Under the pieces are notes generated by a model. It saw only the letters and a program-made list of their open reading frames with translations, made no database searches and was not told the DNA's origin. A stretch of 64,000 nucleotides of DNA from Escherichia coli. GTDB lineage: Bacteria > Pseudomonadota > Gammaproteobacteria > Enterobacterales > Enterobacteriaceae. Shown in pieces: positions 1 to 59,735 of this stretch (positions are counted from its first letter, which is position 1; each line of letters begins with the position of its first letter). The translations under genes were made by a program, and so were the position numbers. Where the stretch lies: NCBI RefSeq assembly GCF_030384885.1, contig NZ_CP128613.1. One strand, written 5' to 3'.

Positions 1-603
1 ACCCAGGCCGATGCAGCAGAGCAAGGAGTTGTGATCAAGCCTGCACAAAATTCCACCGTTGCTGTTGCGTCGCAACCGACAATTACGTATTCTGAGTCTT
101 CGGGTGAACAGAGTGCTAACAAAATGTTGCCGAACAACAAGCCAACTGGGACCACGGTCACAGCGCCTGTAACGGTACCAACAGCAAGCACAACCGAGCC
201 GACTGTCAGCAGTACATCAACCAGTGCGCCTATCTCCACCTGGCGCTGGCCGACTGAGGGCAAAGTGATCGAAACCTTTGGTGCTTCTGAGGGGGGCAAC
301 AAGGGGATTGATATCGCAGGCAGCAAAGGACAGGCAATTATCGCGACCGCAGATGGCCGCGTTGTTTATGCCGGTAACGCGCTGCGCGGCTACGGTAATC
401 TGATTATCATCAAACATAATGATGATTACCTGAGTGCCTACGCCCATAACGACACAATGCTGGTCCGGGAACAACAAGAAGTGAAGGCGGGGCAAAAAAT
501 AGCAACCATGGGTAGCACCGGAACCAGTTCAACACGCTTGCATTTTGAAATTCGTTACAAGGGGAAATCCGTAAACCCGCTGCGTTATTTGCCGCAGCGA
601 TAA
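1..603 (+). CDS. nlpD: NlpD lipoprotein (LysM/M23 peptidase-like), C-terminal part; 5' end lies outside the window
   Basis: ORF runs to window edge; M23 peptidase-like C-terminus; immediately upstream of rpoS as in E. coli. Confidence 0.85.
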
Positions 604-665
604 ATCGGCGGAACCAGGCTTTTGCTTGAATGTTCCGTCAAGGGATCACGGGTAGGAGCCACCTT

Positions 666-1658
666 ATGAGTCAGAATACGCTGAAAGTTCATGATTTAAA
701 TGAAGATGCGGAATTTGATGAGAACGGAGTTGAGGTTTTTGACGAAAAGGCCTTAGTAGAAGAGGAACCCAGTGATAACGATTTGGCCGAAGAGGAACTG
801 TTATCGCAAGGGGCCACACAGCGTGTGTTGGACGCGACTCAGCTTTACCTTGGTGAGATTGGTTATTCACCACTGTTAACGGCCGAAGAAGAAGTTTATT
901 TTGCGCGTCGCGCACTGCGAGGAGATGTTGCCTCCCGCCGCCGGATGATCGAGAGTAACTTGCGTCTGGTGGTAAAAATTGCCCGCCGTTATGGCAATCG
1001 TGGTCTGGCTTTGCTGGATCTTATCGAAGAGGGCAACCTGGGGCTGATCCGCGCGGTAGAGAAGTTTGACCCGGAACGTGGTTTCCGCTTCTCAACATAC
1101 GCAACCTGGTGGATTCGCCAGACGATCGAACGGGCGATTATGAACCAAACCCGTACTATTCGTTTGCCGATTCACATCGTAAAGGAGCTGAACGTTTACC
1201 TGCGAACCGCACGTGAGTTGTCCCATAAGCTGGACCACGAACCAAGTGCGGAAGAGATCGCAGAGCAGCTGGATAAGCCAGTTGATGACGTCAGCCGTAT
1301 GCTTCGTCTTAACGAGCGCATTACCTCGGTAGACACCCCGCTGGGTGGAGATTCCGAAAAAGCGTTGCTGGACATCCTGGCCGATGAAAAAGAAAACGGC
1401 CCGGAAGACACCACGCAAGATGACGATATGAAACAAAGCATCGTCAAATGGCTGTTCGAACTGAACGCCAAGCAGCGTGAAGTGCTGGCACGTCGATTCG
1501 GTTTGCTGGGATACGAAGCGGCAACACTGGAAGATGTAGGTCGTGAAATTGGCCTCACCCGTGAACGTGTTCGCCAGATTCAGGTTGAAGGCCTGCGCCG
1601 TTTGCGCGAAATCCTGCAAACGCAGGGGCTGAATATCGAAGCGCTGTTCCGCGAATAA
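666..1658 (+). CDS. rpoS: RNA polymerase sigma factor RpoS (sigma-38), 330 aa, full length
   Basis: Protein begins [21 protein letters not shown], recognisable as RpoS; start taken at internal ATG of the longer track ORF (630..1658). Confidence 0.95.
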
Positions 1659-1674
1659 GTAAGCATCTGTCAGA

Positions 1675-1708
1675 AAGGCCAGTCTCTTATGAGGCTGGCC
1701 TTTTTCTT
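1675..1708 (+). terminator. Rho-independent terminator after rpoS
   Basis: GC-rich hairpin ggccagtctc/gaggctggcc (1677..1700) followed by TTTTTCTTTT. Confidence 0.7.
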
Positions 1709-1778
1709 TTGTATGGGGAGTTGGTGTGTTTCGTCGCCTGGATAAGACACGTCAGCGTCCCATCCGGCAATCAACATC

Positions 1779-2186
1779 CTATTTGCTCATCATCTTGCGC
1801 ACCAGCTGCATAAACAGCTCCTGCTCTTCTCCACTCAAACGCCCCAAAAATTCCTCATCCACACTGTCGCCAATCGGTATCGCCGCAGCAAGTACCTTTT
1901 CTCCTTCGGCAGTCAGCCAGACAAAGCGTCGCCGCTTATCAGCGGTGTCATGTTCACGTCTGACTAAGCCACGATTTTCCATTCTTGCCAACATTTCTGC
2001 CAGCGTTGCTTTGGTGCTGACGGCTGCTTCCATCAGTGCCACCTGTTCGATACCAGGTTTATCAGCAATGGCGCGCATCACCGCGTACTGTGGTTTGGTC
2101 AGGTCAGGTAACTCGTGCTGCCAGCGGGCCGTATGCTGCTGAAAAAGCTGTCGTAACTGATGGAACGCTTTATTTCGTAACGCCAT
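1779..2186 (-). CDS. MarR/SlyA-family transcriptional regulator, 135 aa
   Basis: Size and winged-helix region typical of MarR family; divergent from the decarboxylase genes. Confidence 0.75.
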   Translation of the reverse strand: MALRNKAFHQLRQLFQQHTARWQHELPDLTKPQYAVMRAIADKPGIEQVALMEAAVSTKATLAEMLARMENRGLVRREHDTADKRRRFVWLTAEGEKVLAAAIPIGDSVDEEFLGRLSGEEQELFMQLVRKMMSK

Positions 2187-2301
2187 GTAAACTCCGGGCT
2201 AATTCTCTGTCGCTATCATAGCGGTTTTTCAGTGACGAAGAAGATGTTGTTACTTTTCAATCCTTGCCGCTGTGGAAATGAAGGAGTATGTTAATAATAA
2301 C

Positions 2302-2315
2302 GTTCGTATACGAAC
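2302..2315. promoter_or_regulatory. Perfect 14-bp palindrome GTTCGTATACGAAC, candidate MarR-type operator upstream of ecdB
   Basis: Read directly; lies 18 bp upstream of the ecdB ATG in the divergent intergenic region. Confidence 0.4.
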
Positions 2316-2332
2316 AATTAAGAGAGTAAGCA

Positions 2333-2926
2333 ATGAAACTGATCGTCGGGATGACAGGGGCTACCGGTGCGCCTCTTGGTGTGGCATTACTGCAAGCGCT
2401 GCGGGAGATGCCGAATGTCGAGACTCATCTGGTGATGTCGAAGTGGGCGAAAACCACTATTGAACTGGAAACGCCTTACAGCGCTCGCGATGTTGCCGCC
2501 CTCGCTGACTTCAGCCATAACCCGGCAGATCAGGCTGCGACCATCTCTTCCGGCTCCTTTCGTACCGACGGCATGATCGTTATTCCATGCAGTATGAAAA
2601 CGCTCGCCGGTATCCGCGCTGGTTACGCCGATGGTCTCGTAGGGCGCGCGGCGGACGTCGTGCTCAAAGAAGGCCGCAAACTGGTGCTGGTGCCGCGTGA
2701 AATGCCGCTTAGCACCATCCATCTCGAAAATATGCTCGCACTTTCGCGCATGGGCGTGGCGATGGTGCCGCCGATGCCTGCCTTTTATAACCATCCCGAA
2801 ACGGTAGATGACATTGTCCACCACGTGGTAGCCCGCGTGCTGGATCAATTTGGCCTCGAACATCCTCACGCCAGGCGCTGGCAAGGGTTGCCGCAGGCCC
2901 GGAATTTTTCTCAGGAGAATGAATAA
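2333..2926 (+). CDS. ecdB: UbiX-like flavin prenyltransferase (phenolic acid decarboxylase subunit B), 197 aa
   Basis: N-terminal MKLIVGMTGATGA flavoprotein motif and UbiX/Pad1 length; first gene of a B-C-D operon. Confidence 0.8.
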   Translation: MKLIVGMTGATGAPLGVALLQALREMPNVETHLVMSKWAKTTIELETPYSARDVAALADFSHNPADQAATISSGSFRTDGMIVIPCSMKTLAGIRAGYADGLVGRAADVVLKEGRKLVLVPREMPLSTIHLENMLALSRMGVAMVPPMPAFYNHPETVDDIVHHVVARVLDQFGLEHPHARRWQGLPQARNFSQENE

Positions 2927-4353
2927 TGGCATTTGATGATTTACGCAGCTTCTTACAGGCGCTTGATGACCACGGCCAGTTACTGAAAATCAGCGAAGAG
3001 GTGAACGCGGAACCGGATCTGGCAGCCGCTGCCAACGCCACCGGGCGTATCGGCGACGGCGCGCCCGCGCTGTGGTTTGATAATATTCGCGGCTTTATCG
3101 ATGCCCGCGTTGCAATGAACACCATCGGTTCTTGGCAGAACCACGCAATTTCTCTCGGTCTGCCGCCAAACACCCCGGTTAAAAAACAGATTGATGAGTT
3201 TATCCGCCGCTGGGATAACTTCCCGATAGCCCCGGAGCGCCGTGCGAATCCTGCCTGGGCGCAGAACACCGTCGATGGCGACGAGATCAATTTGTTCAAT
3301 ATCCTGCCGCTGTTTCGTTTAAACGATGGCGATGGCGGTTTCTATCTCGACAAAGCGTGCGTGGTTTCCCGCGATCCGCTCGATCCGGATAACTTCGGCA
3401 AGCAGAACGTCGGCATCTATCGCATGGAAGTGAAGGGTAAGCGTAAGCTCGGCCTGCAACCGGTGCCGATGCACGATATCGCCCTGCATCTGCATAAAGC
3501 GGAAGAACGTGGTGAAGATTTGCCAATTGCCATCACGCTGGGTAACGATCCGATCATCACCCTGATGGGCGCCACCCCGCTGAAATATGATCAATCGGAG
3601 TACGAAATGGCGGGCGCGCTACGCGAAAGCCCGTACCCGATCGCCACCGCCCCGCTGACCGGTTTTGATGTGCCGTGGGGTTCAGAAGTGATCCTCGAAG
3701 GGGTTATCGAAAGCCGCAAACGTGAAATCGAAGGGCCGTTCGGTGAGTTTACCGGGCACTACTCCGGTGGGCGCAACATGACCGTAGTGCGCATCGATAA
3801 AGTCTCTTACCGCACCAAACCGATTTTTGAATCGCTCTATCTCGGCATGCCGTGGACCGAAATCGACTACCTGATGGGGCCTGCCACCTGCGTGCCGCTT
3901 TACCAGCAGTTGAAAGCCGAGTTCCCGGAAGTGCAGGCGGTGAACGCTATGTACACCCACGGCCTGCTGGCGATTATCTCCACCAAAAAACGCTATGGCG
4001 GCTTTGCCCGCGCAGTGGGCCTGCGTGCGATGACCACGCCGCACGGTCTGGGTTATGTGAAGATGGTGATTATGGTCGATGAAGACGTTGACCCGTTCAA
4101 CCTGCCGCAGGTGATGTGGGCGCTCTCGTCGAAAGTGAACCCGGCAGGCGATCTGGTGCAACTGCCAAATATGTCCGTGCTGGAACTCGACCCAGGCTCA
4201 AGCCCGGCGGGGATCACCGATAAGCTGATTATCGACGCCACCACGCCTGTCGCCCCGGACAACCGTGGTCACTACAGCCAGCCGGTGGTGGACTTACCGG
4301 AAACCAAAGCCTGGGCTGAAAAACTGACCGCTATGCTGGCCGCACGTAAATAA
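2926..4353 (+). CDS. ecdC: UbiD-family phenolic acid (4-hydroxybenzoate/vanillate-type) decarboxylase subunit C, 475 aa
   Basis: UbiD-family size and sequence character; start overlaps ecdB stop (translational coupling). Confidence 0.8.
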   Translation: MAFDDLRSFLQALDDHGQLLKISEEVNAEPDLAAAANATGRIGDGAPALWFDNIRGFIDARVAMNTIGSWQNHAISLGLPPNTPVKKQIDEFIRRWDNFPIAPERRANPAWAQNTVDGDEINLFNILPLFRLNDGDGGFYLDKACVVSRDPLDPDNFGKQNVGIYRMEVKGKRKLGLQPVPMHDIALHLHKAEERGEDLPIAITLGNDPIITLMGATPLKYDQSEYEMAGALRESPYPIATAPLTGFDVPWGSEVILEGVIESRKREIEGPFGEFTGHYSGGRNMTVVRIDKVSYRTKPIFESLYLGMPWTEIDYLMGPATCVPLYQQLKAEFPEVQAVNAMYTHGLLAIISTKKRYGGFARAVGLRAMTTPHGLGYVKMVIMVDEDVDPFNLPQVMWALSSKVNPAGDLVQLPNMSVLELDPGSSPAGITDKLIIDATTPVAPDNRGHYSQPVVDLPETKAWAEKLTAMLAARK

Positions 4354-4363
4354 GGAGAACAAG

Positions 4364-4600
4364 ATGATTTGTCCACGTTGTGCCGATGAACAGATTGAAG
4401 TGATGGCGAAATCGCCGGTGAAAAATGTCTGGACGGTCTACCAGTGCCAGCATTGCCTTTATACATGGCGCGATACTGAACCGCTACGTCGCACCAGCCG
4501 CGAACATTATCCCGAAGCCTTCCGTATGACGCAGAAAGATATTGATGACGCACCGATGGTGCCGAGCATTCCGCCGCTGCTGGCGGAAGGTAAGCGCTAA
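4364..4600 (+). CDS. ecdD: Small decarboxylase subunit D (BsdD/YclD-like), 78 aa, Cys-rich
   Basis: Small ORF with CPRC ... CQHC motifs immediately after the UbiD gene, as in bsdBCD-type operons. Confidence 0.65.
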   Translation: MICPRCADEQIEVMAKSPVKNVWTVYQCQHCLYTWRDTEPLRRTSREHYPEAFRMTQKDIDDAPMVPSIPPLLAEGKR

Positions 4601-4602
4601 AT

Positions 4603-4631
4603 AAAAGGTCCGATGCCCATCGGACCTTTTT
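4603..4631. terminator. Bidirectional rho-independent terminator between convergent ecdD and ygbN
   Basis: Stem ggtccgat/atcggacc with loop gccc, flanked by AAAA and TTTTT. Confidence 0.7.
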
Positions 4632-4638
4632 ATTAAGG

Positions 4639-6003
4639 TCAAATTACCGCCCATACGCACCAGGTAATTAAGAATCCGGTAAAACCGAGAATGGTCGTTA
4701 ACACTGTCCAGGTTTTCAGACCGTCTGCTACCGACAACCCCAGATATTTGGTCACAATCCAGAACCCTGAGTCATTAATATGTGACGCGCCAAGCCCACC
4801 AAAGCAGGCTGCCAGCGTCACCAATACGCACTGAATCGGATTCAATCCCATCACAGCTTCTGAGAGTAACCCGCCGGTTGTCAGGATTGCTACGGTTGCT
4901 GACCCCTGCGATGCACGCAGCGCCAGTGAAATAATAAATGCGGCTGGTAACAGAGGCAGGTCAATCATTTGTAGCATGTTGGCAAGGGCTTTGCCGACGC
5001 CCGATTCCACCAGCACTTTGCCAAATACCCCTCCAGCACCAGTAACCAAAATCACTACCGCCGCAGTGGGAAGGGCTGAGCCCATAATGTCGCTGGTGTG
5101 TTGTAAGCTCCAGCCGCGACGTAAAGCCAATAACCAGAATGCCAGCACCAGCGCAATCATTAGAGCTACCATTGGTGAGCCGATCAGCTGTAGCGTACCA
5201 AGCAGGGGATGCGAAGGCGGCATCAGTGTTGCGGAAACCGTACCCGCCATGATAATCGCGATAGGAATAACAATTAGCGAGGTGACCAGCGCGACGCCCG
5301 GTGGATTTATTTTATCGCTTAATTTTGTCGCGCCTTCCTCACTGGCCGGAGCCAGTTGCATCTGTTCCAGTACTTCCACCGACATCGCATATTGGCGCTT
5401 ATTGATTATTTTCGCTGCAAAGTAGCCAACAATCCCTACGGGAATAGAAATCGCAATACCGATGATGGTTAGCCAGCCGATGTCTGCGTGGAGTAACCCC
5501 GCTGCGGCGACAGGGCCTGGATGCGGCGGTACCGCCACATGAACAGTTAGCATGATTCCAGCGACAGGCAGGCCAAATTTGAGTGGCGATATTTTGGCAA
5601 CCTTGGCAAAACCGTAAATGATTGGCGCAAGAATAATAAAGCCGACATCAAAGAAGACGGGAATACCGAGGAAGAACGCTGCCAGAGTCAGCGCAGCGAT
5701 AGTTCGTTTGTCACCTAACTTGCGACTGAAATAATTAGCCAGTGACTCTGCACCACCAGAGTGTTCGATCATACGCCCCAGCATAGCGCCCAGACCAATA
5801 ATAATAGTGACGGAACCAAGCACACCGCCCATCCCGGCGATCATCACTTTACCCACTTCGCCCGCCGGTATACCCGCCGCAAGTGCGACTAACAGGCTGA
5901 CGAGGAGCAGAGCAACGAATGGTTGTACCTTTGCCTTGATGACCAGCAGCAACAGCATGATTACGCCAGTTAACGCAATGCATAACAATGTAATTGTGGA
6001 CAT
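4639..6003 (-). CDS. ygbN: GntP-family permease (putative threonate/tetronate transporter), 454 aa
   Basis: Polytopic membrane protein of GntP type; position and length match ygbN. Confidence 0.85.
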   Translation of the reverse strand: MSTITLLCIALTGVIMLLLLVIKAKVQPFVALLLVSLLVALAAGIPAGEVGKVMIAGMGGVLGSVTIIIGLGAMLGRMIEHSGGAESLANYFSRKLGDKRTIAALTLAAFFLGIPVFFDVGFIILAPIIYGFAKVAKISPLKFGLPVAGIMLTVHVAVPPHPGPVAAAGLLHADIGWLTIIGIAISIPVGIVGYFAAKIINKRQYAMSVEVLEQMQLAPASEEGATKLSDKINPPGVALVTSLIVIPIAIIMAGTVSATLMPPSHPLLGTLQLIGSPMVALMIALVLAFWLLALRRGWSLQHTSDIMGSALPTAAVVILVTGAGGVFGKVLVESGVGKALANMLQMIDLPLLPAAFIISLALRASQGSATVAILTTGGLLSEAVMGLNPIQCVLVTLAACFGGLGASHINDSGFWIVTKYLGLSVADGLKTWTVLTTILGFTGFLITWCVWAVI

Positions 6004-6091
6004 GGGAAACCCTGTCTGAAAGTTATAGTTAACCTACCCCATCCGTAGATGGGGGGATGTATGGGTACGTTGTAATTAGGGATTTAACGAA

Positions 6092-6868
6092 TTAGCGCCA
6101 GGCGTCAAACCAGCCAAGCCCTTCTTCGGTGAGGCCACGAGGTTTATATTCACAACCGATCCAGCCCTGATATCCCACCTCATCGAACAGGCGGAACAGC
6201 CACGGATAGTTGATTTCTCCATCGTCCGGTTCATGTCGATCAGGTAGTCCGGCAATTTGTACGTGCGCATATTTCCCGGCGTAATCGCGGATTAAATGTG
6301 TCAGGTTGCCATCTACTTTTTGCGCATGGAAAGTATCTAGTTGAATAAACACGTTATCTCGCGCAACCTCTTCAACAATAGCCAGTGCCTGATACTGGCT
6401 GGAGAAGAGATAATGAGGCTTAACGCCGGGGCTGAGTGCTTCAACCAATATTCGCTTGCCGTGTGGCGCAAAGCGGTCGGCAGCGTAGCGGAGATTATCA
6501 ATAAATACTGCCCGGTACCGTTCAGCATCTTCGCCAGCGGGCACGACGCCTGCCATCACATGGACTTGTTCACAATTGAGCGCCAATGCATATTCCAGTG
6601 CCAGGTCGATGTCTGCGCGTGCTTCGTGCTCACGTCCAGGAAGGGCGGATAATCCCCATTCTCCCGCATTAATATCTCCGGGAGCGGTATTGAACAGCGC
6701 CAGTGTCAGATGGTTTTGCACCAGTTGCTTTTGGATTTGCAGGGGGGAGTAGTCATAGGGAAACAGAAATTCCACAGCATCGAACCCGGCTTTTCGCGCT
6801 GCGGCGAAGCGTTCAATAAAAGGCACTTCGGTGAACATCATGGATAAATTAGCTGCAAAACGAGGCAT
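6092..6868 (-). CDS. ygbM: Hydroxypyruvate-isomerase-like TIM-barrel enzyme (2-oxo-tetronate isomerase), 258 aa
   Basis: Xylose-isomerase-like fold protein in the ygbJKLMN operon position. Confidence 0.85.
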
Positions 6869-6872
6869 TGCA

Positions 6873-7511
6873 TTAACTCCTTAATTCCGCAATTTCACCT
6901 GCGGTCAGATAACGGATCGGGCGGTCACCGAGAATAAAAATCAGCTTTGCCGTTTCCTCCAGCTCTTCCATATTGTTGGCGGCTTCTTGCAGGCTTTCAC
7001 CGCAAACCACTGGGCCATGATTTGCCAGTAAAAAAGCCTGATTGTCTGCTGCCAGTTCCGCCAGATCCTGTGCGATGCGTTTATCGCCCGGTCGGTAATA
7101 GGGCACCAGCGGGACATTACCCATCCGCATCACCACGTATGGTGTGAACGGCCGAATAACGTTATTGCTGTCCAGCCCTTCCAGGCAGGAAAGCGCCGTC
7201 GACCACGTACTGTGCAAATGCACTACCGCTTTACAGCGCGGATTGTTGCGATACAGCGCCAGATGAAAGAGCACCTCTTTCGAGGGTTTGTCACCACTTA
7301 ACCATTCGCCATCCACGGCGACTTTGGAAAGCCGCTGCGGATCGAGATTGCCCAGGCATGAACCTGTCGGTGTCGCCAGTAAATTCCCATCAGGTAAAAG
7401 CAGCGACAGATTGCCAGCCGAACCGGTTGCATAGCCGCGCTGAAAGAATGAACTGGCAATCCGCGTCATCTCCTCTCGCAAAGACTGCTCTACTTTTGCG
7501 AAATCGCTCAT
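6873..7511 (-). CDS. ygbL: Class II aldolase/adducin-family protein (3-oxo-tetronate 4-phosphate decarboxylase), 212 aa
   Basis: Class II aldolase-like sequence; operon position. Confidence 0.85.
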
Positions 7512-8770
7512 GATAAAAACTCTCTTTGGGCTCGTGAAAAAAAGGCTTCATCACCGAAGTTGCCAGATTTAAGGGCGAGTGAGACAGGCTTATCCAGTGC
7601 GTTTACCCACGGCACGCCGGGGGAAATGGTTGGGCCAATATGAAACCCTTTTATTCCCAGGCTCTGTGTGACTACGCCGGAGGTCTCACCGCCTGCGACA
7701 ATAAAGCGTGTCACGCCTTCCGCTGCTAACTGCGCCGCTAGTTGAGAAAACAGTGTTTCTACTGCCTGACTGGCTTTTTGTGCACCGTATTGCTGTTGAA
7801 TTGCTGCCAATGCGTCAGTGCTGGCGGTGGCAAAAACCAGTGGAGCAAGTACACTTTCCTGGCCCAGAACCCACTCTGCCAGCTCGTGTGCATAAGCGGC
7901 CAGAGTTTCAATTGAGAGGCAGCGTGCAACATCAACTTCACGGGCTGGTGCAATTTGACGGTAATGTGCCACCTGGCGGTTGGTCATTTGAGAGCATGAA
8001 CCGGAGAGCACTACGCCGCGCCCTGCGAGCGGACGCCCTGCTTCGCGAGCCTGGTTACCATTTTCTTGCGCCCACTGCCGGGCCAGGCCAATTGCCAGAC
8101 CAGAACCGCCCGTTACCAGTGGGGCATCGCGCAAGGCTTCCCCCTGAATTTCCAGATGGTGTTCGGTCAGCGCATCAAGCACCGCGTAGCGATAGCCCTC
8201 TTGCTGTAAGCGAGCCAGCTCCTGACGAACGGCTTTCACACCTTGTTCGAAAACATGTGCTGAAACGACGCCGCAGCGCCCTGTGGATTGCGCTTCAACC
8301 AGACGGGGAAGATAGCTGTCGGTCATGGGATTTACCGGGTGATGGCGCATCCCGGATTCGGCCAGCAGTTGATTCATTACGAACAAATACCCCTGATAAA
8401 CCGTACGTCCGTTGACCGGCAGGGCCGGAGAGAAGACCGTAAACGGCGTGTCGAGAGCATCCATTAATGCATCGGTAACCGGGCCGATATTACCTTTCGC
8501 CGTACTGTCGAAAGTAGAGCAGTATTTGAAATAGATCTGTTTGCAACCTTGCTGTTGCAACCAGCTCAGAGCCGCCAGCGATTGCTGTGTGGCTTCAACC
8601 ACCGGACAGGAGCGCGTTTTCAGGCTGATCACCAGTGCGTCGATTGCTTCCGGCATTTTACCTGTTGGAACACCGTTAATTTGTACCGTTGGTAGACCGT
8701 TTTCCACCAGAAAACTGGCGATATCCGTCGCGCCGGTAAAATCATCGGCGATAACGCCAATCTTGATCAT
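7508..8770 (-). CDS. ygbK: Four-carbon acid sugar kinase (3-oxo-tetronate kinase), 420 aa as read
   Basis: N-terminal IADDFTGATD motif typical of this kinase family; start not verified against K-12 length. Confidence 0.8.
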   Translation of the reverse strand: MIKIGVIADDFTGATDIASFLVENGLPTVQINGVPTGKMPEAIDALVISLKTRSCPVVEATQQSLAALSWLQQQGCKQIYFKYCSTFDSTAKGNIGPVTDALMDALDTPFTVFSPALPVNGRTVYQGYLFVMNQLLAESGMRHHPVNPMTDSYLPRLVEAQSTGRCGVVSAHVFEQGVKAVRQELARLQQEGYRYAVLDALTEHHLEIQGEALRDAPLVTGGSGLAIGLARQWAQENGNQAREAGRPLAGRGVVLSGSCSQMTNRQVAHYRQIAPAREVDVARCLSIETLAAYAHELAEWVLGQESVLAPLVFATASTDALAAIQQQYGAQKASQAVETLFSQLAAQLAAEGVTRFIVAGGETSGVVTQSLGIKGFHIGPTISPGVPWVNALDKPVSLALKSGNFGDEAFFSRAQREFLS

Positions 8771-9675
8771 GATTTCGCTCCCGGTAGAGTGATGCCAGAG
8801 AAAATCTTGATAACTGCGCTATCGTCTTCTTTCCCGTAACCCGCGTTACTGGCGCTGGTGAACATATTCAATGCTGTTGAGGCCAATGGCAGCGGAAAGT
8901 GCAGGGCTTTGGCTGTATCGGCAACCAGACCAAGATCCTTAACAAAAATATCGACGGCTGAATGCGGGGTGTAATCGCCATCCACCACATGACGCATCCG
9001 GTTTTCGAACATCCAGGAATTTCCGGCGGCATTGGTCACGACGTCATACATCACATCCAGCGGGATCCCCGCACGGGCTGCAAGTGCCATCGCTTCGGCT
9101 CCGGCAGCAATATGTACGCCCGCTAACAACTGGTGAATAATTTTTACGGTCGAACCTAGTCCCGGTTCTGCACCTATGCGATAAACTTTTCCGGCAACGG
9201 CTTCCAGCACGGGTGCCAGTCGTTCAAAGGCAATATCGCTACCGGAGGCCATGACAGTCATTTCACCGTTAGCGGCTTTTACTGCACCACCAGAAACTGG
9301 CGCATCCAGCATTTCCAGATCGAATCCAGCCAGAGCGGTAGCAATTTCTTGCGCATCAGCACTGGCGATAGTGGAAGAAACCATTACTGCCGTACCGGGT
9401 TTCAGATGTTGTGCAACGCCTGTTTCACCAAACAGCACCTGTTTAACCTGGGCCGCATTGACCACCAGCACCAGCAGAGCGTCCAGTTTTTCGGCAAACG
9501 TCGCGGCGTTATCAGAAACCCCGCAAGCACCTGCCTCTTTCAACGTAGCGCAGGCATTGCTGTTTAGGTCTGCGCCCCAGGTAGAAAGACCTGCGCGGAC
9601 ACATGACAGTGCTGCTCCCATTCCCATTGACCCTAAGCCAACGATACCGACATGAAACTCAGATCCCGTTTTCAT
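8767..9675 (-). CDS. ygbJ: NAD-dependent 3-hydroxyisobutyrate-dehydrogenase-like enzyme (L-threonate dehydrogenase), 302 aa
   Basis: N-terminal GxxGxxG Rossmann motif (VGIVGLGSMG); operon position. Confidence 0.85.
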   Translation of the reverse strand: MKTGSEFHVGIVGLGSMGMGAALSCVRAGLSTWGADLNSNACATLKEAGACGVSDNAATFAEKLDALLVLVVNAAQVKQVLFGETGVAQHLKPGTAVMVSSTIASADAQEIATALAGFDLEMLDAPVSGGAVKAANGEMTVMASGSDIAFERLAPVLEAVAGKVYRIGAEPGLGSTVKIIHQLLAGVHIAAGAEAMALAARAGIPLDVMYDVVTNAAGNSWMFENRMRHVVDGDYTPHSAVDIFVKDLGLVADTAKALHFPLPLASTALNMFTSASNAGYGKEDDSAVIKIFSGITLPGAKS

Positions 9676-9870
9676 CTGCTCTCCTTGTTAATTTAAGTGA
9701 TATTTTGTTTGATAATGTGAATATAAGCGCTGGAAGATAACGATATGGTGAGCTGATTCACAAAAATTAACATTGTGTGTTATTTTATGTGAACTAAGCG
9801 TTAGTTGCGCCGCGCACGTTTCGCAGGCAAATAGCGTAGAATGTCAGCAGGACAAAGGAAGGAGCAAAAG

Positions 9871-10638
9871 TTGATACCCGTAGAGCGTCGCCAAATCATC
9901 CTTGAGATGGTAGCTGAAAAAGGCATTGTCAGTATTGCTGAACTAACGGACAGAATGAATGTGTCACATATGACCATTCGTCGGGATTTACAAAAACTGG
10001 AGCAGCAGGGAGCCGTTGTGCTGGTGTCCGGAGGCGTCCAGTCTCCGGGACGCGTGGCGCATGAACCTTCTCATCAGGTAAAAACTGCGCTGGCAATGAC
10101 GCAAAAAGCGGCTATTGGCAAGCTGGCGGCAAGTCTTGTTCAGCCGGGAAGTTGTATCTATCTGGATGCGGGAACGACCACGCTAGCGATAGCACAGCAT
10201 CTGATTCACATGGAGTCACTGACTGTGGTCACAAACGATTTCGTTATTGCGGACTACTTGCTCGACAACAGTAATTGCACAATTATTCACACTGGCGGTG
10301 CAGTATGTCGGGAAAACCGTTCCTGTGTCGGGGAAGCCGCTGCGACCATGCTGCGCAGCCTGATGATTGATCAGGCTTTTATTTCTGCATCGTCATGGAG
10401 TGTGCGGGGGATTTCTACGCCAGCGGAAGATAAAGTCACGGTGAAACGGGCGATTGCCAGTGCCAGCCGCCAGCGAGTTTTGGTCTGTGATGCGACGAAA
10501 TATGGTCAGGTGGCGACATGGCTGGCGTTACCATTAAGCGAGTTTGATCAGATTATTACAGACGACGGTTTGCCGGAGAGTGCCAGTCGCGCGCTGGCGA
10601 AGCAGGATCTCTCTTTGCTGGTAGCGAAAAATGAATAA
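9871..10638 (+). CDS. ygbI: DeoR-family transcriptional regulator, 255 aa from a TTG start
   Basis: DeoR HTH N-terminus; AAGGAAGGA RBS upstream of TTG at 9871; the longer track ORF starts at 9841. Confidence 0.75.
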   Translation: MIPVERRQIILEMVAEKGIVSIAELTDRMNVSHMTIRRDLQKLEQQGAVVLVSGGVQSPGRVAHEPSHQVKTALAMTQKAAIGKLAASLVQPGSCIYLDAGTTTLAIAQHLIHMESLTVVTNDFVIADYLLDNSNCTIIHTGGAVCRENRSCVGEAAATMLRSLMIDQAFISASSWSVRGISTPAEDKVTVKRAIASASRQRVLVCDATKYGQVATWLALPLSEFDQIITDDGLPESASRALAKQDLSLLVAKNE

Positions 10639-10688
10639 TGGCCTGCAATAACACCGGGTTACTCATGCTTCACAGAAGAAGCATGAGA

Positions 10689-11345
10689 CTACTTTATTTT
10701 ATAAAATGACAGGCGCCCACTTTCCGGCGAACCGGTATCAATATAAACCTGGTTGGCGAATGTCTGGATGTTATCAAACATCATATGTCCGAAGATAAAG
10801 CAGTCGGCGCCGTTTATTTCCTGTAACTCGCCTTTGAGCGATTTCAGTACGCGATCAACAGGCCAGAGCAATTCTCTCTCCGCTATTTCTTTGCCAAAGA
10901 GATATTCATTCCCCGGATAATCTGCATGCGCGATGACATATTTTATTATGTCGTTAGTGATTTAAACAATATGCGGAAGATTATGAAAACGTAGCAACAG
11001 GTCTATTGCTTCTTTTTGTTCCGTATCACTTAACTCAAAGAACCAGTCGCCACCACTGGCAAGCCACATATTGCCATCGCCGGTCGCGAACGCATCCAAT
11101 GCCATCGCTTCATGGTTGCCTTTGACCGATGTAAACCAGGGCTGGTTTAGCAGGCGCAGCACGTTAAGACTCTCCGGCCCACGATCAATATTATCGCCGA
11201 CAGAAATAAGTAAGTCGGTTTCAGGGCAAAAAGAGAGTTGATGTAAGCGGGATTGTAATAATTGATAGTCACCATGAATATCACCAACGGCCCATATATG
11301 GCGATAGTGATGGGCATTAATTTTTTGATAGCGTGTAGATGGCAT
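10689..11345 (-). pseudogene. pphB: Serine/threonine protein phosphatase 2 gene interrupted by an in-frame TAA (rc of 10962..10964) at codon 128 of 218
   Basis: Two track ORFs (127 aa and 60 aa) are in the same frame with 30 sense codons between them; GDxHG, GDxxDRG and GNHE motifs lie before the stop, the GH motif after. Confidence 0.7.
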
Positions 11346-11450
11346 GGTTTTACCCTGTAAAATAAGATTTCCTATTATACAGGGTATTTTTATTTGATTC
11401 GTCAGTTGTCGTTAATATTCCCGATAGCAAAAAACTATCGGGAATTGTTA

Positions 11451-14012
11451 TTACACCAGACTCTTCAAGCGATAAATCCATTCCAGCGCCTGACGCGGGG
11501 TAAGTGAATCCGGGTCAAGATTTTCCAGCGCTTCGACCGCTGGCGACGTTTCTTCTGGCACTGAAAGCAAAGACATTTGCGTACCATCCACTTGCGTAGC
11601 GGCGGCGTTCGGCGAAATGCTTTCCAGCTCACGCAGTTTTTGCCGTGCGCGCTTAATAACCTCTTTTGGTACGCCCGCCAGAGCTGCAACCGCCAGACCG
11701 TAGCTTTTGCTCGCCGCGCCATCCTGCACGCTGTGCATAAAGGCAATGGTGTCGCCGTGCTCCAGCGCATCAAGATGCACGTTGGCGACGCCTTCCATTT
11801 TCTCCGGCAGTTGAGTCAGTTCAAAGTAGTGGGTAGCAAACAACGTCAACGCTTTAATCTTATTCGCCAGATTTTCAGCGCACGCCCATGCCAGCGACAG
11901 ACCATCGTAAGTGGACGTTCCGCGCCCAATCTCATCCATCAACACCAGGCTGTACTCCGTGGCGTTATGCAGAATATTGGCGGTTTCGGTCATCTCCACC
12001 ATAAAGGTTGAACGCCCGGATGCCAGATCGTCAGCCGCGCCCACACGGGTAAAGATACGGTCAATCGGGCCAATCTCGACTTTTTGCGCCGGTACGTAGC
12101 TGCCGATATAGGCCATCAGCGCAATCAGTGCGGTCTGGCGCATATAGGTACTTTTACCGCCCATGTTCGGACCGGTGATGATCAACATGCGACGCTGCGG
12201 CGACAGGTTCAGCGGGTTAGCGATAAACGGCTCATTCAGTACCTGTTCAACCACCGGATGGCGACCTTCGGTAATGCGAATGCCCGGTTTATCAATGAAG
12301 GTCGGGCAGGTGTAGTTCAGGGTATAGGCCCGTTCCGCCAGGTTTACCAGTACGTCGAGTTCTGCCAGTGCGCTCGCGCTCTGTTGCAACGCTTCCAGAT
12401 GCGGCAACAGCAGGTCGAACAACTCTTCATAAAGCTGTTTTTCCAGTGCCAGCGCTTTACCTTTCGAGGTGAGTACTTTGTCTTCATACTCTTTTAGCTC
12501 TGGAATAATGTAGCGTTCGGCGTTTTTCAGCGTCTGGCGACGCATATAGTTGATGGGTGCGAGATGGCTTTGTCCACGGCTAATCTGAATGTAATAACCA
12601 TGCACCGCGTTAAAGCCAACTTTCAGCGTGTCCAGGCCGGTACGTTCACGCTCGCGAACTTCCAGACGCTCCAGATAATCTGTCGCGCCGTCAGCCAGCG
12701 CTCGCCACTCATCCAGCTCTTCGTTATAGCCTGATGCGATAACACCACCGTCGCGTACCAGCACCGGCGGTGTGTCGATGATTGCTCGCTCCAGCAGATC
12801 GCGCAGCTCTGCAAACTCGCCCATTTTCTCACGCAGCGCCTGTACCGGTGCACTAGCGACATTTTCTAACTGCGCACGCAGCTCCGGCAGTTGCTGGAAA
12901 GCGTGACGCATACGGGCCAGATCGCGTGGGCGGGCAGTCCGTAAAGCCAGACGTGCCAGAATACGTTCCAGGTCGCCGACCTGACGCAGTACCGGCTGCA
13001 GCTCAGCGGTGAAATCCTGCAATGCGCCAATAGTTTGCTGGCGCTCAAGCAACACGCGGGTATCGCGCACTGGCATATGCAGCCAGCGTTTCAGCATTCG
13101 ACTCCCCATCGGCGTTACAGTGCAATCGAGCACGGAAGCCAGCGTGTTTTCCGCACCGCCCGCCAGGTTCTGGGTAATTTCCAGGTTACGACGCGTCGCG
13201 GCATCCATAATGATGCTGTCCTGCTCACGTTCCATAGTGATAGAACGAATATGCGGCAGAGTCGTACGTTGAGTATCTTTCGCATACTGCAACAGACAAC
13301 CGGCGGCACAAAGTCCGCGCGGCGCGTTCTCGACGCCAAAACCGACCAGATCGCGAGTGCCAAATTGTAGATTCAACTGCTGGCGCGCGGTGTCGATTTC
13401 AAACTCCCACAGCGGGCGACGGCGCAAGCCGCGACGACCTTCAATCAGCGACATTTCAGCAAAATCTTCTGCATACAGCAGTTCCGCCGGATTAGTGCGT
13501 TGCAGTTCTGCCGCCATCGTTTCGCGGTCAGCCGGTTCACTCAGGCGAAAACGACCGGAACTGATATCCAGCGTCGCGTAGCCGAAACCTTTACTGTCCT
13601 GCCAGATAGCCGCCAGCAGGTTGTCCTGACGCTCCTGCAACAGCGCTTCATCGCTGATGGTGCCCGGCGTAACGATACGCACAACTTTGCGCTCAACCGG
13701 ACCTTTGCTGGTCGCCGGATCGCCAATTTGTTCGCAGATGGCAACGGACTCGCCCTGATTCACCAGTTTGGCGAGGTAGTTTTCCACCGCATGGTATGGA
13801 ATCCCCGCCATCGGGATCGGCTCTCCCGCTGAAGCGCCGCGTTTGGTCAGTGAAATATCCAGCAGTTGTGACGCACGTTTTGCGTCGTCATAAAACAGTT
13901 CGTAAAAGTCACCCATCCGGTAGAACAGCAGGATCTCGGGATGCTGGGCTTTCAGCTTGAGATACTGCTGCATCATTGGCGTGTGGGCGTCGAAATTTTC
14001 TATTGCACTCAT
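11451..14012 (-). CDS. mutS: DNA mismatch repair protein MutS, 853 aa
   Basis: Length and Walker A region (GPNMGGKST) typical of MutS. Confidence 0.95.
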
Positions 14013-14298
14013 GGAGTTATGTCCGGTTCCCTGATTTTAAATGGGGTGTGATGATTTTTATTTTCGTTGTAATCACATAAGGCGCACATGATACCGGAGT
14101 TAATCATTTCAGGGGAAGAAGCGAACGGCGAGTTCTTGATGTCGGTTCCGCGAAAAATGCTGCTTTGCAGCTTTTGCGTGATGCTTATGAAGCAAGTACG
14201 CAAAATTGTATCAGTTGGCGAACCCTTCTTCTTCAGAGACATAGTCCCCTTTAAAATTAAGTTGTAATATAAATGCACCTTAAGAGTATGGAGGCAGC

Positions 14299-28701: not shown

Positions 28702-29013
28702 ATGCACATCATTTCGAAAGCGCCATTTGAAGAGTGCGCGCGCAAATATCCTAACGACGCTCTGGCTTTACACTCATTGTATCGGGTTATTAAGGAAACG
28801 GATTTTTCTACGCCAGAAGAAATGCGAACGGCGTTTCCCAACCTCGACAATTTTAAATATCGTAACAAATGGTACGTTCTGGATGTAGGCGGGAACAATC
28901 TTAGGGTTATTGCCTACATAAACTTTGTTAATAAGCGGTTCTTTGTGAAGCACATAACGAATCATGCCGAGTATGACAAACTGACACGTTACTACAGAGA
29001 GAACAGAGAATGA
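28702..29013 (+). CDS. HigB-like type II toxin (RelE/ParE-superfamily mRNA interferase), 103 aa
   Basis: Close architectural and sequence resemblance to K-12 HigB/YgjN (VFPNLDNFKY, VGGNNLRV); AAGGAAG RBS; not placed here in K-12 as I recall. Confidence 0.75.
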   Translation: MHIISKAPFEECARKYPNDALALHSLYRVIKETDFSTPEEMRTAFPNLDNFKYRNKWYVLDVGGNNLRVIAYINFVNKRFFVKHITNHAEYDKLTRYYRENRE

Positions 29014-29429
29014 CTGCTAATGCTGCACGCGCTGTTAAAGCAACAAGAGAACTGGTCAATGCAGTCCCCTTTCTGGGAGGCAGTGACTCAGAAGATGATT
29101 ATCGTGAAGCACTGGAACTGGTCGAATATTTGATTGAAGAAGATGACACCAATCCACTTATCGACTTTCTGGCGAGCCGCATTGCAGAGTATGAAAACAA
29201 CCACGAAAAGTTTGCAGAGTTCGACAAAGCCGTTGCTGCAATGCCGGTTGGCGTGGCGTTACTTCGCACGTTGATTGATCAACATAATCTGACCTATGCG
29301 GATTTGAAGAACGAAATCGGCTCTAAATCCCTGGTCAGTCAGATTTTGTCTGGACAAAGATCCCTGACGATATCCCACATTAAGGCACTTTCAGCCCGAT
29401 TTGGCGTTAAGCCGGAATGGTTTCTTTGA
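29010..29429 (+). CDS. HigA-like antitoxin with C-terminal XRE-type HTH, 139 aa
   Basis: 4-bp ATGA overlap with the toxin gene; C-terminal HTH (SLVSQILSGQRSLTISHIKALSARFGV). Confidence 0.75.
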   Translation: MTANAARAVKATRELVNAVPFLGGSDSEDDYREALELVEYLIEEDDTNPLIDFLASRIAEYENNHEKFAEFDKAVAAMPVGVALLRTLIDQHNLTYADLKNEIGSKSLVSQILSGQRSLTISHIKALSARFGVKPEWFL

Positions 29430-57918: not shown

Positions 57919-59031
57919 TTACCTGTCAGTCACCCGATATTCCACGCTATGTGCTTCATCAGGTTGAGGAACTTCCAGCCTTGAGGCCATCCGCATCACG
58001 ACCGCTTCAGGAACGGCATACTCGCGCCTGGCATTTTGCTGCTTCCATTGCGCCCATGGCACTTCCAGATAAACGATTTTTACTCGTGCGCCGTAAGCCG
58101 TAAACAGACTGATGAGCTGGCTACGCAGTTGGCGGGTAATGTTCGTTGCATTCCAGATGAACGGCTTTTTCTGGCGTAAAAAAACGCGCGCCTCTTCTTT
58201 TGCCTGTTGCACAATACGCCCGGTCGCGGTTTTGTCGTCCGGGCTGGCATTGATTCGCCGCCGCATATCATCAAGGCTGATAACGTCCATTCCCTGGCAC
58301 TGTTCACTGATATAGCGATCTTTGCCCATACCCGGTAAGCCACACAGCAAAATGACCTCAAAAGGTTCAGCCTCCCAGGGAACAAAATCAGGAGAACTTT
58401 GTTCATGGGTCAGATAATGCCAGCGTGCGGAATCAGACACGAACGAGCGCACTTTTCCCCAACACTGTTGCTCCTGGCAAAATAGCTCGAACAGATCGAT
58501 GCGTTCCAGCATTGATTGCTGATCATGACAATGGCGACCAAGCAGATCGGCACGAGCAAGCAAAGCGAGCAGACGCGTGTCGATACGCATTGCAGCCGTG
58601 AGCAGCAAACGCTCCGGTTCCGGACGTTCTAGTAACCATAGCGGTAACCCATGCAGACGCACCAGTGCAACAATTTGCTCGCGTAGCACGAACGGCGTCG
58701 GGATATCGCGCCATAAAATTTGTCGGGCCGTCAATTCACCCCGACGAGCATGACCAGGAGACTGAATACGTCCGTTTTCCTGCACGGTAGTACTGCGCTT
58801 TTCAACGTCATGCAATAACGCCGCCGCCCATAAAATTTCCTGCTGCTGAGCGGGGAGTTGCTGGAACTCTGGCAGAGCCACGAGTGCATTCAGCACCATT
58901 TCAGTATGCACACCAACGTCGCCTTCACCATGATGCTCCGGGTCTTGCGGCGTATTATGCATATCCTCAACCCAGCTAAAACGCTGGCGTAGCGTCGACC
59001 AGCGTTTGTCGTCGGTAAGTTGCCAAATCAT
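57919..59031 (-). CDS. HD-domain phosphohydrolase fused to a P-loop polynucleotide-kinase-like domain, 370 aa
   Basis: N-terminal HD signature ([10 protein letters not shown] ... LLHDVEK); C-terminal Walker-A-like GLPGMGKD and DVISLDD; not present between luxS and emrB in K-12 as I recall. Confidence 0.6.
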
Positions 59032-59735
59032 GACTGTTCTCCATAAGCGAACTCATGGGCCATCCGCGCCCGTCGCCAGTGGCGTTTCCAGTGCTCGGTG
59101 GTTTTGACATGATTTTTGCGTACATACTTGAAGACGTTATGCGAAAAGTCAGCGACGGAAAACGCATCACTATTCCGGCTGACAATGCCTTCCAGCGTAC
59201 AGGGTTGTCCGGTTTGCGTATCCCAGGGATCGAACGCACCGCGCGCATTGGTCAGCGCCAGAAAATCACGTTGCCAGCTTTTTTCATCATTCCCCGGCTG
59301 CGGGCCGGAGATTTCGGGAACGCAGGGGAAATCAAACAGAGCGGCGTAAAACTGCACCTCTTCCCAGCTCAGCCACATATCCTGGCAGCGAACGGCAAAC
59401 AGATAAAAATCCTGCTCCAGGGCGCGATATTCAATCGAATGAACGGCATAAAGATTTTCACCAAACAACTCCAGATCGCCGAGATCGTTTTTCAGCAGTT
59501 GCCAGCGTTGGCGAATTTTATAGGTCCATGCCGATTGTGTAGGCGCGGCATGGGAACGGGCAAACACGCCGTAGCGGTTAAGGCAGTTATTTTCACCGTC
59601 GAGTTTTTCAGTATGTACCAACTGCGAAATTGCCTGCATATCTTGCCAGTAACTGGCGTTAATGCGGTCATCGCTGGTGGTGCCAGGGGAGAAGGGGTAA
59701 TGCCAGGTTCTCCCGTATTTACGTTGGGTATTCAT
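59028..59735 (-). CDS. Small ATP-dependent nucleic-acid (RNA) ligase-like nucleotidyltransferase, 235 aa
   Basis: Covalent nucleotidyltransferase motifs in order: [41 protein letters not shown]; 4-bp overlap with the downstream gene. Confidence 0.6.

Follow-up and report, generated by a model that had tools for sequence, protein, structure and literature searches.

What is the segment that lies between rpoS and ygbN in the window, i.e. the whole 64-kb stretch of DNA analysed here, and is its presence beside a complete ygb block unusual? The mutS-rpoS interval is known to be polymorphic, as a sequence-only reading of this DNA had stated, and its patterns are published. Our analysis indicates, with a probability of about 90%, that window 1705-4599 carries the HosA/EcdBCD locus of the chromosome, an operon for the non-oxidative decarboxylation of hydroxyarylic acids, in the already-known long form of the interval. 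The gene identities, motifs, operator, hairpin, distribution and synteny reported below come from our own analysis, and what is said on substrates, on the ligand of HosA and on how EcdD works is taken from the literature on orthologues.

Gene content of the interval

All the open reading frames described in the sequence-only reading are present, the complete ygbI-N block included (Table 1). The segment absent from K-12, 1705-4599, was delimited by BLAST breakpoints, with the K-12 homology stopping at 1704, at the rpoS terminator; the range given earlier, 1710-4635, is off by no more than a few bases from these limits, once the hairpin that follows ecdD is added to them. At the two ends of the interval, the rpoS translation is identical to that of strain 2013C-4282, and pphB carries a nonsense codon (TAA at 10962-10964) owing to one C-to-A difference at 10964 from the intact 2013C-4282 gene. 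The RefSeq names agree with our assignments for the five genes from ygbN through ygbM, ygbL and ygbK to ygbJ (4639-9675, minus strand), which by these assignments are a predicted four-carbon sugar-acid (L-threonate/tetronate) catabolic operon, a unit apart from the decarboxylase. An Rfam search over window 1-14000 with gathering thresholds gave no match, and PADLOC assigned the accessory gene pair at luxS-emrB to no known defence family.

Table 1. Features from rpoS to mutS, with window coordinates
Feature	Position	Strand	Description and evidence
rpoS	666-1658	+	intact, 330 aa; left anchor of the variable interval; RefSeq annotation of a near-identical record
rpoS intrinsic terminator hairpin	1672-1705	+	terminator scan, 15 pairs; inverted repeat 1674-1703
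hosA	1779-2186	-	MarR/SlyA family; divergent from ecdB; Pfam MarR and PDB 8AGA match
HosA operator	2302-2315		perfect 14-bp palindrome; matches published probe
ecdB (vdcB/pad1)	2333-2926	+	UbiX-family flavin prenyltransferase; NCBIfam VdcB
ecdC (vdcC/yclC)	2926-4353	+	UbiD-family catalytic subunit; NCBIfam VdcC
ecdD (vdcD)	4364-4600	+	zinc-ribbon activator subunit, 78 aa; NCBIfam VdcD
ecdD/ygbN hairpin	4598-4635		bidirectional terminator-like, between convergent genes; folding
ygbN	4639-6003	-	GntP-family transporter; above NCBIfam equivalog cut-off
ygbM	6092-6868	-	OtnI; above NCBIfam equivalog cut-off
ygbL	6873-7511	-	OtnC; above NCBIfam equivalog cut-off
ygbK	7508-8770	-	OtnK; above NCBIfam equivalog cut-off
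ygbJ	8767-9675	-	LtnD; above NCBIfam equivalog cut-off
ygbI	9871-10638	+	DeoR family, repressor of the ygb operon; NCBIfam YgbI, 482 bits (cut-off 400)
ygbI/pphB hairpin	10662-10687		right edge of the ygb cassette; fold -21 kcal/mol, z = -5.9
pphB (Ser/Thr phosphatase 2)	10689-11345	-	interrupted here; ORF split
mutS	11451-14012	-	right anchor of the variable interval

The decarboxylase operon and its control

The identities proposed earlier, a MarR regulator with a UbiX/UbiD/small-subunit trio, hold throughout, with the Pfam MarR domain found and the VdcB, VdcC and VdcD cut-offs all passed. EcdB scores 312 bits against NCBIfam VdcB (cut-off 290), carries the Pfam Flavoprotein domain and matches PDB 1SBZ (Pad1) with 432 bits. 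EcdC scores 788 bits against VdcC (cut-off 650), has all three of the Pfam domains UbiD_N, UbiD and UbiD_C, and matches ShVdcC (7AE4) with 536 bits. Its R166 lies within the motif NVGIYR, and E269 and E274 lie within EGPFGE; we take these, by analogy with Fdc1, to be the Glu-Arg-Glu catalytic residues. EcdD scores 120 bits against VdcD (cut-off 30), matches chain a of 7AE4 with 44 bits, and has cysteines at positions 3, 6, 28 and 31, i.e. two CXXC knuckles; the zinc ligands of ShVdcD are the cysteines at the same four positions (PMC8379154). The three genes are tightly packed, the ecdB stop overlapping the ecdC start (ATGA) and a gap of 10 nt separating ecdC from ecdD, with a GGAG ribosome-binding site ahead of the latter.

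Three known systems can be compared with this operon. EcdBCD of E. coli O157:H7 (Pad1/YclC/small subunit; 1SBZ) has the same genes, order, lengths, rpoS-adjacent site and divergent MarR-family gene, and is orthologous with about 94-97% DNA identity to the window; it differs downstream of ecdD, where another hairpin and then directly pphB follow, without the ygb cassette. VdcCD/ShdCD of Sedimentibacter hydroxybenzoicus and BsdBCD of Bacillus subtilis (7AE4, 7AE5, 7AE7) show the same UbiD-type C, zinc-ribbon D and dependence on a UbiX-type B, and share with the window proteins the four cysteines and the motifs EGPFGE and GxYR, but they are distant orthologues (by the C and D scores against 7AE4 given above) with another host, regulator and genomic context. 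UbiX and UbiD of ubiquinone synthesis belong to the same two enzyme families and use the same chemistry of prenylated FMN (prFMN) as EcdB and EcdC; however they are paralogues rather than orthologues, and UbiD has no D subunit and a polyprenylated substrate.

By analogy with these relatives, EcdB as a UbiX-type flavin prenyltransferase would make prFMN, with which EcdC may convert 4-hydroxybenzoate to phenol and vanillate to guaiacol in reversible reactions. The small zinc-ribbon protein EcdD would bind EcdC and hold its catalytic Glu-Arg-Glu loops in position. In a review table, recombinant EcdCD of O157:H7 stands with the 4-hydroxybenzoate decarboxylases and is given two accepted substrates, which we read, judging by the table headings, as 4-hydroxybenzoate and vanillate; protocatechuate is absent from the accepted ones. 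Could the operon serve another role, i.e. have protocatechuate or gallate as its substrate, carboxylate phenol, or supply EcdB as a backup of UbiX in ubiquinone synthesis? The UbiD family is indeed described as having broad substrate ranges and reversible reactions (literature on relatives, including PMC8379154), and EcdB is a bona fide UbiX-family prenyltransferase. Such a role is nevertheless quite improbable in our judgment: against its VdcC score, EcdC reaches only 174 bits with the UbiD model for 4-hydroxy-3-polyprenylbenzoate (cut-off 788) and also falls far lower with the phenylphosphate carboxylase models, the O157:H7 orthologue is the 4-hydroxybenzoate decarboxylase just described, and the cognate regulator HosA responds to 4-hydroxybenzoate according to the literature.

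HosA matches Pfam MarR with 48 bits and PDB 8AGA ('Transcriptional regulator HosA') with 276 bits over residues 1-134, being near-identical to it. The palindrome GTTCGTATACGAAC between hosA and ecdB lies 18 bp upstream of the ecdB ATG, and the 25 nt at window 2294-2318 match the reverse complement of the HosA-site oligo T_H (supplement of PMC6261655). HosA of EPEC E2348/69 and UPEC UMN026 (8AGA and related entries) is a near-identical protein with the same divergent arrangement and the same palindrome, and a comparison with the window HosA found no notable difference; a motility phenotype has also been reported for HosA. The published ligand and repression data describe HosA as binding 4-hydroxybenzoate and repressing. 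By this analogy, HosA at the palindrome would repress ecdBCD and 4-hydroxybenzoate would release it. A sigma-70 consensus promoter scan of the hosA-ecdB control region (2187-2332) gave nothing above threshold; the best candidate by eye is TTGCCG, 17 nt, TATGTT at 2265-2293, matching at 8 of 12 positions.

The bidirectional terminator that the sequence-only reading placed between the two blocks is real as a hairpin by folding and terminator-like on both strands. It is symmetric, flanked by an A-tract and, on the opposite side, a T-tract, and its folding energies for the two strands are -17.7 and -17.3 kcal/mol (z-scores -5.1 and -4.3). A simple terminator scan did not call it, the probable reason being that its stem continues into the A/T tracts. 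The convergent ecdBCD and ygb units share this one hairpin, a putative two-way intrinsic terminator.

Distribution of the two blocks

The combined layout is common and published. The decarboxylase segment is found in 2380 of the 5426 complete E. coli genomes and the whole long interval with both blocks in 1568 of them (~29%), with zero plasmid copies. The genome comparison bears out the expectation that K-12 has the ygb genes only and the O157 type the decarboxylase segment without ygb; B2 strains are without the decarboxylase segment. Ewers 2014 took E2348/69 as the reference for pattern IV of the mutS-rpoS region and found this pattern in 94 of 510 strains (PMC4209514), and Herbelin 2000 is cited in PMC5491219 for the same segment of 2.9 kb. 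The pattern IV reference (o454-nlpD region) has the identical order, i.e. rpoS, slyA/hosA, kpdBCD/ecdBCD, o454/ygbN ... mutS, from which the window differs by its clade I alleles and the nonsense codon in pphB.

The window also has close relatives with the same arrangement. It differs by 10 SNPs in 64 kb from NZ_CP027579.1 of strain 2013C-4282, a stx1-positive member of Escherichia cryptic clade I, and for this reason we rejected the idea that it is a new recombinant. The layout recurs in EC42405, another cryptic clade I genome. Given this second genome and the 1568 genomes above, the arrangement is therefore ordinary for the source lineage: the layout with both blocks corresponds to the published long form, also called pattern IV, and is standard for cryptic clade I, and the earlier implication that carrying both is noteworthy is not borne out.

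The decarboxylase block also adjoins rpoS outside Escherichia. Among 96 species loci compared across genera, rpoS lies beside the cluster in 41 (median gap 111 bp), and both rpoS and mutS do in 24, some of which have only ~2.4-3.1 kb between rpoS and mutS. The rpoS-hosA-ecdBCD adjacency was found in Citrobacter, Enterobacter, Klebsiella, Kluyvera, Salmonella, Leclercia, Atlantibacter and other genera. As so many Enterobacteriaceae genera share it, the block is probably ancestral there and is no pathogen-specific insertion. The segment, which the sequence-only reading linked to some pathogenic lineages, is present in the O157 type but is not specific to pathogens.

The same synteny bears on a view in which the segment is a horizontally acquired, pathogen-associated islet whose co-occurrence with ygb is unusual and lineage-specific. 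The absence of the segment from K-12 and B2 strains, the frequent description of hosA as 'horizontally acquired' in the literature and the stx1-positive source strain would fit this view. But the conserved adjacency across genera contradicts it, as do the lack of an integrase, IS element, tRNA or flanking direct repeat, a GC content of 0.50-0.58 like that of the neighbouring DNA, a 94-97% identity to the sensu stricto alleles that equals the clade baseline of ~95%, and the number of genomes with the combined layout, and we consider it extremely improbable. We looked for direct or inverted repeats of at least 8 bp bounding the decarboxylase segment or the ygb cassette and found none, i.e. no transposition signature. 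A mobile element or genomic island was likewise rejected as a candidate, there being no mobility ORFs or end repeats, unremarkable GC, conserved synteny and no plasmid copies.

A mosaic in the ygb part of the interval

The ygb cassette, which extends from 4598 to ~10653 (6.06 kb, hairpin included), has a history different in appearance from that of its surroundings. It is 98.2-99.6% (about 99%) identical to the alleles of E. coli sensu stricto, whereas its flanks and the adjacent 25-kb core are about 94-95.5% identical to theirs. The identity switches sharply at the cassette edges, on the right-hand side at ~10654-10713. The hairpin at 4598-4635 is unchanged in K-12, which is without ecdBCD, and in strain EH031 it is 100% identical to the window with ecdD only 93% identical; on these alignments, the hairpin belongs by descent to the ygb cassette. 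The ecdD-pphB junction of the O157 type has a different 26-bp hairpin (CCGGGTAG...TACCCGG), which the long-form loci do not have; Escherichia sp. E1V33, Escherichia sp. MOD1-EC7003, one Pseudocitrobacter and two Citrobacter species carry it in the corresponding place. In Salmonella the ygb genes are also in the interval, in the other orientation.

The 99% cassette within 94-95% flanks, together with an O157-type hairpin common to Citrobacter, suggests that the ygb cassette is the later part. The decarboxylase block would then be the ancestral occupant beside rpoS, and the cassette with its hairpin a later arrival that is still recombining, an order made less certain by the ygb genes in Salmonella. 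The long form is reportedly ancestral and the short forms derived from it by deletion, in a model that Herbelin is said to have put forward in 2000, with which a later cassette conflicts.

On such a model, the long form would be ancestral to all E. coli, simple deletion would have given the other forms, the O157 type included, and both blocks would be strictly vertical here. The presence of the long form in the deep-branching clade I and in several phylogroups agrees with this, in addition to that publication. However a deletion cannot recreate the O157-type junction hairpin, which the long-form loci do not have, and strict vertical descent does not agree with the sharp change of identity at the cassette edges; we regard the model as rather unlikely. 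Our tentative proposal, to which we give somewhat less than an even chance, is that the hairpin-bounded ygb cassette is a discrete unit which replaced the ancestral ecdD terminator and was then exchanged by recombination between sensu stricto and clade I, the O157-type junction being the pre-insertion state shared with Citrobacter. If true, it would revise the model of an ancestral long form with two deletions giving the short forms, and would account for three independent rearrangement endpoints (K-12, O157 and B2 types) within ~50 bp of the hairpin.

With the combined layout being common, published and the norm for cryptic clade I, there is no reason to flag it as unusual; the variable mutS-rpoS interval is in use for typing E. 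coli lineages, and the mosaic pattern adds a little to the evolutionary history of this recombination hotspot. For the strain itself, the locus would by orthology mean the conversion of 4-hydroxybenzoate and vanillate, which come from parabens, plant phenolics and lignin breakdown, to phenol and guaiacol.

Decarboxylase operon and its control region

The layout of the rpoS-mutS interval, as mapped from open reading frames, agrees in genes and coordinates with the sequence-only reading, which had described a MarR regulator and an ecdBCD-like decarboxylase operon between rpoS and the ygb genes. The GC content of the decarboxylase segment is 0.50-0.58, similar to that of the neighbouring DNA.

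Features of the rpoS-mutS interval (genes and spacer from the ORF map; window positions)
Feature	Position	Strand	Remark
nlpD, 3' part	left of rpoS
rpoS	666-1658
hosA	1779-2186	minus	135 aa
Candidate promoter	2265-2293		by eye
Palindrome	2302-2315
ecdB	2333-2926	plus	197 aa
ecdC	2926-4353	plus	475 aa
ecdD	4364-4600	plus	78 aa
Spacer	between ecdD and ygbN		38 bp
Inverted repeat	4598-4635		18-nt arms
ygbN, ygbM, ygbL, ygbK, ygbJ	4639-9675	minus
ygbI	right of ygbJ	plus
pphB	10689-11345	minus	after ygbI
mutS	11451-14012	minus	after pphB

Judged by curated protein models, the assignment as a phenolic acid decarboxylase operon is also correct: subunits B, C and D score 312, 788 and 120 bits against NCBIfam cut-offs of 290, 650 and 30 for the non-oxidative hydroxyarylic acid decarboxylase models. 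The Pfam domains are Flavoprotein in EcdB and UbiD_N, UbiD and UbiD_C in EcdC. EcdB resembles Pad1 of E. coli O157:H7 (PDB 1SBZ, 432 bits), and EcdC and EcdD have their counterparts in both chains of 7AE4, the VdcCD complex of Sedimentibacter. EcdC retains the motifs NVGIYR and EGPFGE, which by analogy with other UbiD enzymes would contain the catalytic residues, one Arg and two Glu, and cysteines 3, 6, 28 and 31 of EcdD occupy the same positions as the zinc ligands reported for ShVdcD. According to the literature on orthologues, VdcC-type enzymes require prFMN from a UbiX-type subunit and show no activity when the D subunit, which keeps the catalytic loops stable, is missing. A review table groups recombinant O157:H7 EcdCD with the 4-hydroxybenzoate decarboxylases, and the same table has it also taking the substrate assigned to vanillate decarboxylase.

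The regulator belongs to the MarR family (Pfam) and is near-identical to the crystallised HosA (8AGA, 276 bits). In the literature, HosA of UMN026 and EPEC is reported to repress its own gene and the decarboxylase operon and to bind a palindromic site 3' of the transcription start, from which 4-hydroxybenzoate releases it. The window has a perfect palindrome, GTTCGTATACGAAC, 18 bp 5' of the ecdB start codon, which together with its flanks gives a 25-nt match to a published HosA-site oligonucleotide. A sigma-70 consensus scan of the hosA-ecdB control region found no site above threshold; by eye, TTGCCG-17 nt-TATGTT is a candidate promoter, whose start would fall just upstream of the operator.

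Distribution of the combined arrangement

The joint presence of hosA-ecdBCD and the ygb block had been implied to be special, which our data do not support. The decarboxylase segment is present, at a coverage of at least 80%, in 2380 of 5426 complete E. coli genomes, and the whole rpoS-mutS interval has this long form in 1568 of them. Comparison with other strains gave three further layouts: K-12 is without window positions 1705-4599, the O157 type is without 4608-10689, and B2 strains have flavodoxin and MBL-fold genes in place of 1712-4650. These four are exactly the published mutS-rpoS patterns, with the window being pattern IV, for which E2348/69 is the reference (PMC4209514). In each of its three best matches, the decarboxylase segment runs on into ygbN. 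The arrangement is also standard in the source lineage: the window differs by 10 single bases in 64 kb from strain 2013C-4282 (NZ_CP027579.1), a stx1-positive member of Escherichia cryptic clade I (PMC10100065), and a second clade I genome, EC42405, has the same layout. The combined arrangement is hence not unusual, and both it and the operon are already known.

One of the 10 differences, a C-to-A at 10964, gives pphB a premature TAA (10962-10964, Glu-to-stop at codon 128); in 2013C-4282 the gene is intact. pphB is hyperdivergent: its identity to all strains compared, EC42405 included (87.4%), is 87-90%, well under the clade baseline of about 95%; mutS is at the baseline (94-95%). In EC42405, rpoS is annotated as a pseudogene with an internal stop (L103 8508-9500), and an extra tetratricopeptide-repeat gene, not in the window, lies between pphB and mutS (L103 19210-20064). 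Between mutS and ygbA, the window has a RefSeq-annotated hypothetical ORF of 59 aa with no Pfam match (14088-14267, plus).

Two further gene pairs lie elsewhere in the window. One, a HigB-family toxin with an HTH antitoxin, is inserted between hycI and ascB in the core hyc-asc interval (28702-29429, plus). The other, an accessory pair between luxS and emrB (57919-59735, minus), combines a member of the RNA ligase family (Pfam RNA_ligase) with an AAA_33 kinase-like ATP-binding protein of 370 aa and looks like an RNA-repair pair; this pair occurs in 999 of the 5426 genomes, the window copy being only about 94% identical to most, and a PADLOC scan of it gave no hit.

Origins of the ygb cassette and the decarboxylase block

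The inverted repeat between ecdD and ygbN is flanked by an A-tract and, at its opposite end, by a T-tract. Its folding energy is -17.7 kcal/mol for one strand and -17.3 kcal/mol for the other, and all shuffled sequences were weaker. The hairpin is symmetric, and the earlier reading of it as a two-way intrinsic terminator, for the convergent ecdD and ygbN, is plausible. An identical hairpin lies 3' of ygbN in K-12, which is without ecdBCD, and the ygb cassette is bounded on each side by a terminator-like hairpin.

Over the adjacent 25-kb core, identity between the clade I strain and E. coli sensu stricto is about 95.2-95.5%. Against EH031, a long-form strain, the flanking genes are near or below this baseline (hosA 96.1%, ecdB 97.3%, ecdC 94.1% and ecdD 93.2% on the left; mutS 94.5% and pphB 89.7% on the right), whereas identity is 100% for the hairpin and 98.2-99.6% for the genes from ygbN to ygbI. 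The boundaries are sharp: as far as 4597 there is a mismatch roughly every 15 bp, the next one comes only at 4855, and mismatches are dense again at 10654-10713. The low-divergence tract (4598-10653) coincides with the segment absent from O157-type strains, and the rearrangement endpoints of the K-12, O157-type and B2-type layouts (4600, 4607 and 4651) all lie no more than about 50 bp from the hairpin. We looked for direct repeats flanking the decarboxylase segment or the ygb cassette and found none. The O157-type junction has another hairpin, CCGGGTAG...TACCCGG, not seen in long-form loci, which lies directly 3' of ecdD in two other Escherichia species, two Citrobacter species and one Pseudocitrobacter.

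Our analysis suggests that the ygb cassette, with its end hairpins, may have taken the place of the ancestral ecdD terminator and later been passed from lineage to lineage through homologous recombination, and that the O157-type junction is probably not a simple deletion product. A published model reportedly takes the long form as ancestral, at odds with such a replacement, and Salmonella also has ygb genes in the interval, in a different orientation; we therefore hold the replacement reading with moderate confidence only. In E. albertii NBRC 107761 (L007 1-218), the window-type hairpin AAGGTCCGATGTCCATCGGAC lies directly 3' of ecdD and is followed by a REP-like sequence instead of ygbN, where the contig ends; this may be what a lost ygb cassette has left behind.

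For the decarboxylase block, we scanned a collection of species-representative genomes with a degenerate pattern for a VdcC peptide, and searched the neighbours of the 96 resulting loci by tblastn with the window proteins. rpoS adjoins the cluster in 41 loci (median gap 111 bp), mutS is found in 40, and both are found in 24. The hosA-ecdBCD genes alone fill an rpoS-mutS interval of 2.4-3.1 kb in several genera. Genera with the cluster at this site include Citrobacter, Enterobacter, Klebsiella, Kluyvera, Leclercia, Lelliottia, Atlantibacter, Pseudocitrobacter, Phytobacter, Cedecea, Pluralibacter and Franconibacter, as well as Salmonella, with the cluster inverted, and other Escherichia species. 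The module is also known from sites not next to rpoS, in Rahnella, Pantoea, Erwinia, Vibrio and Shewanella. A pathogen-specific insertion of the block is in essence refuted by the rpoS adjacency across many genera. Since the rpoS-hosA-ecdBCD order recurs across genera, the decarboxylase block is an old resident beside rpoS, which the K-12 and B2 strains have lost.
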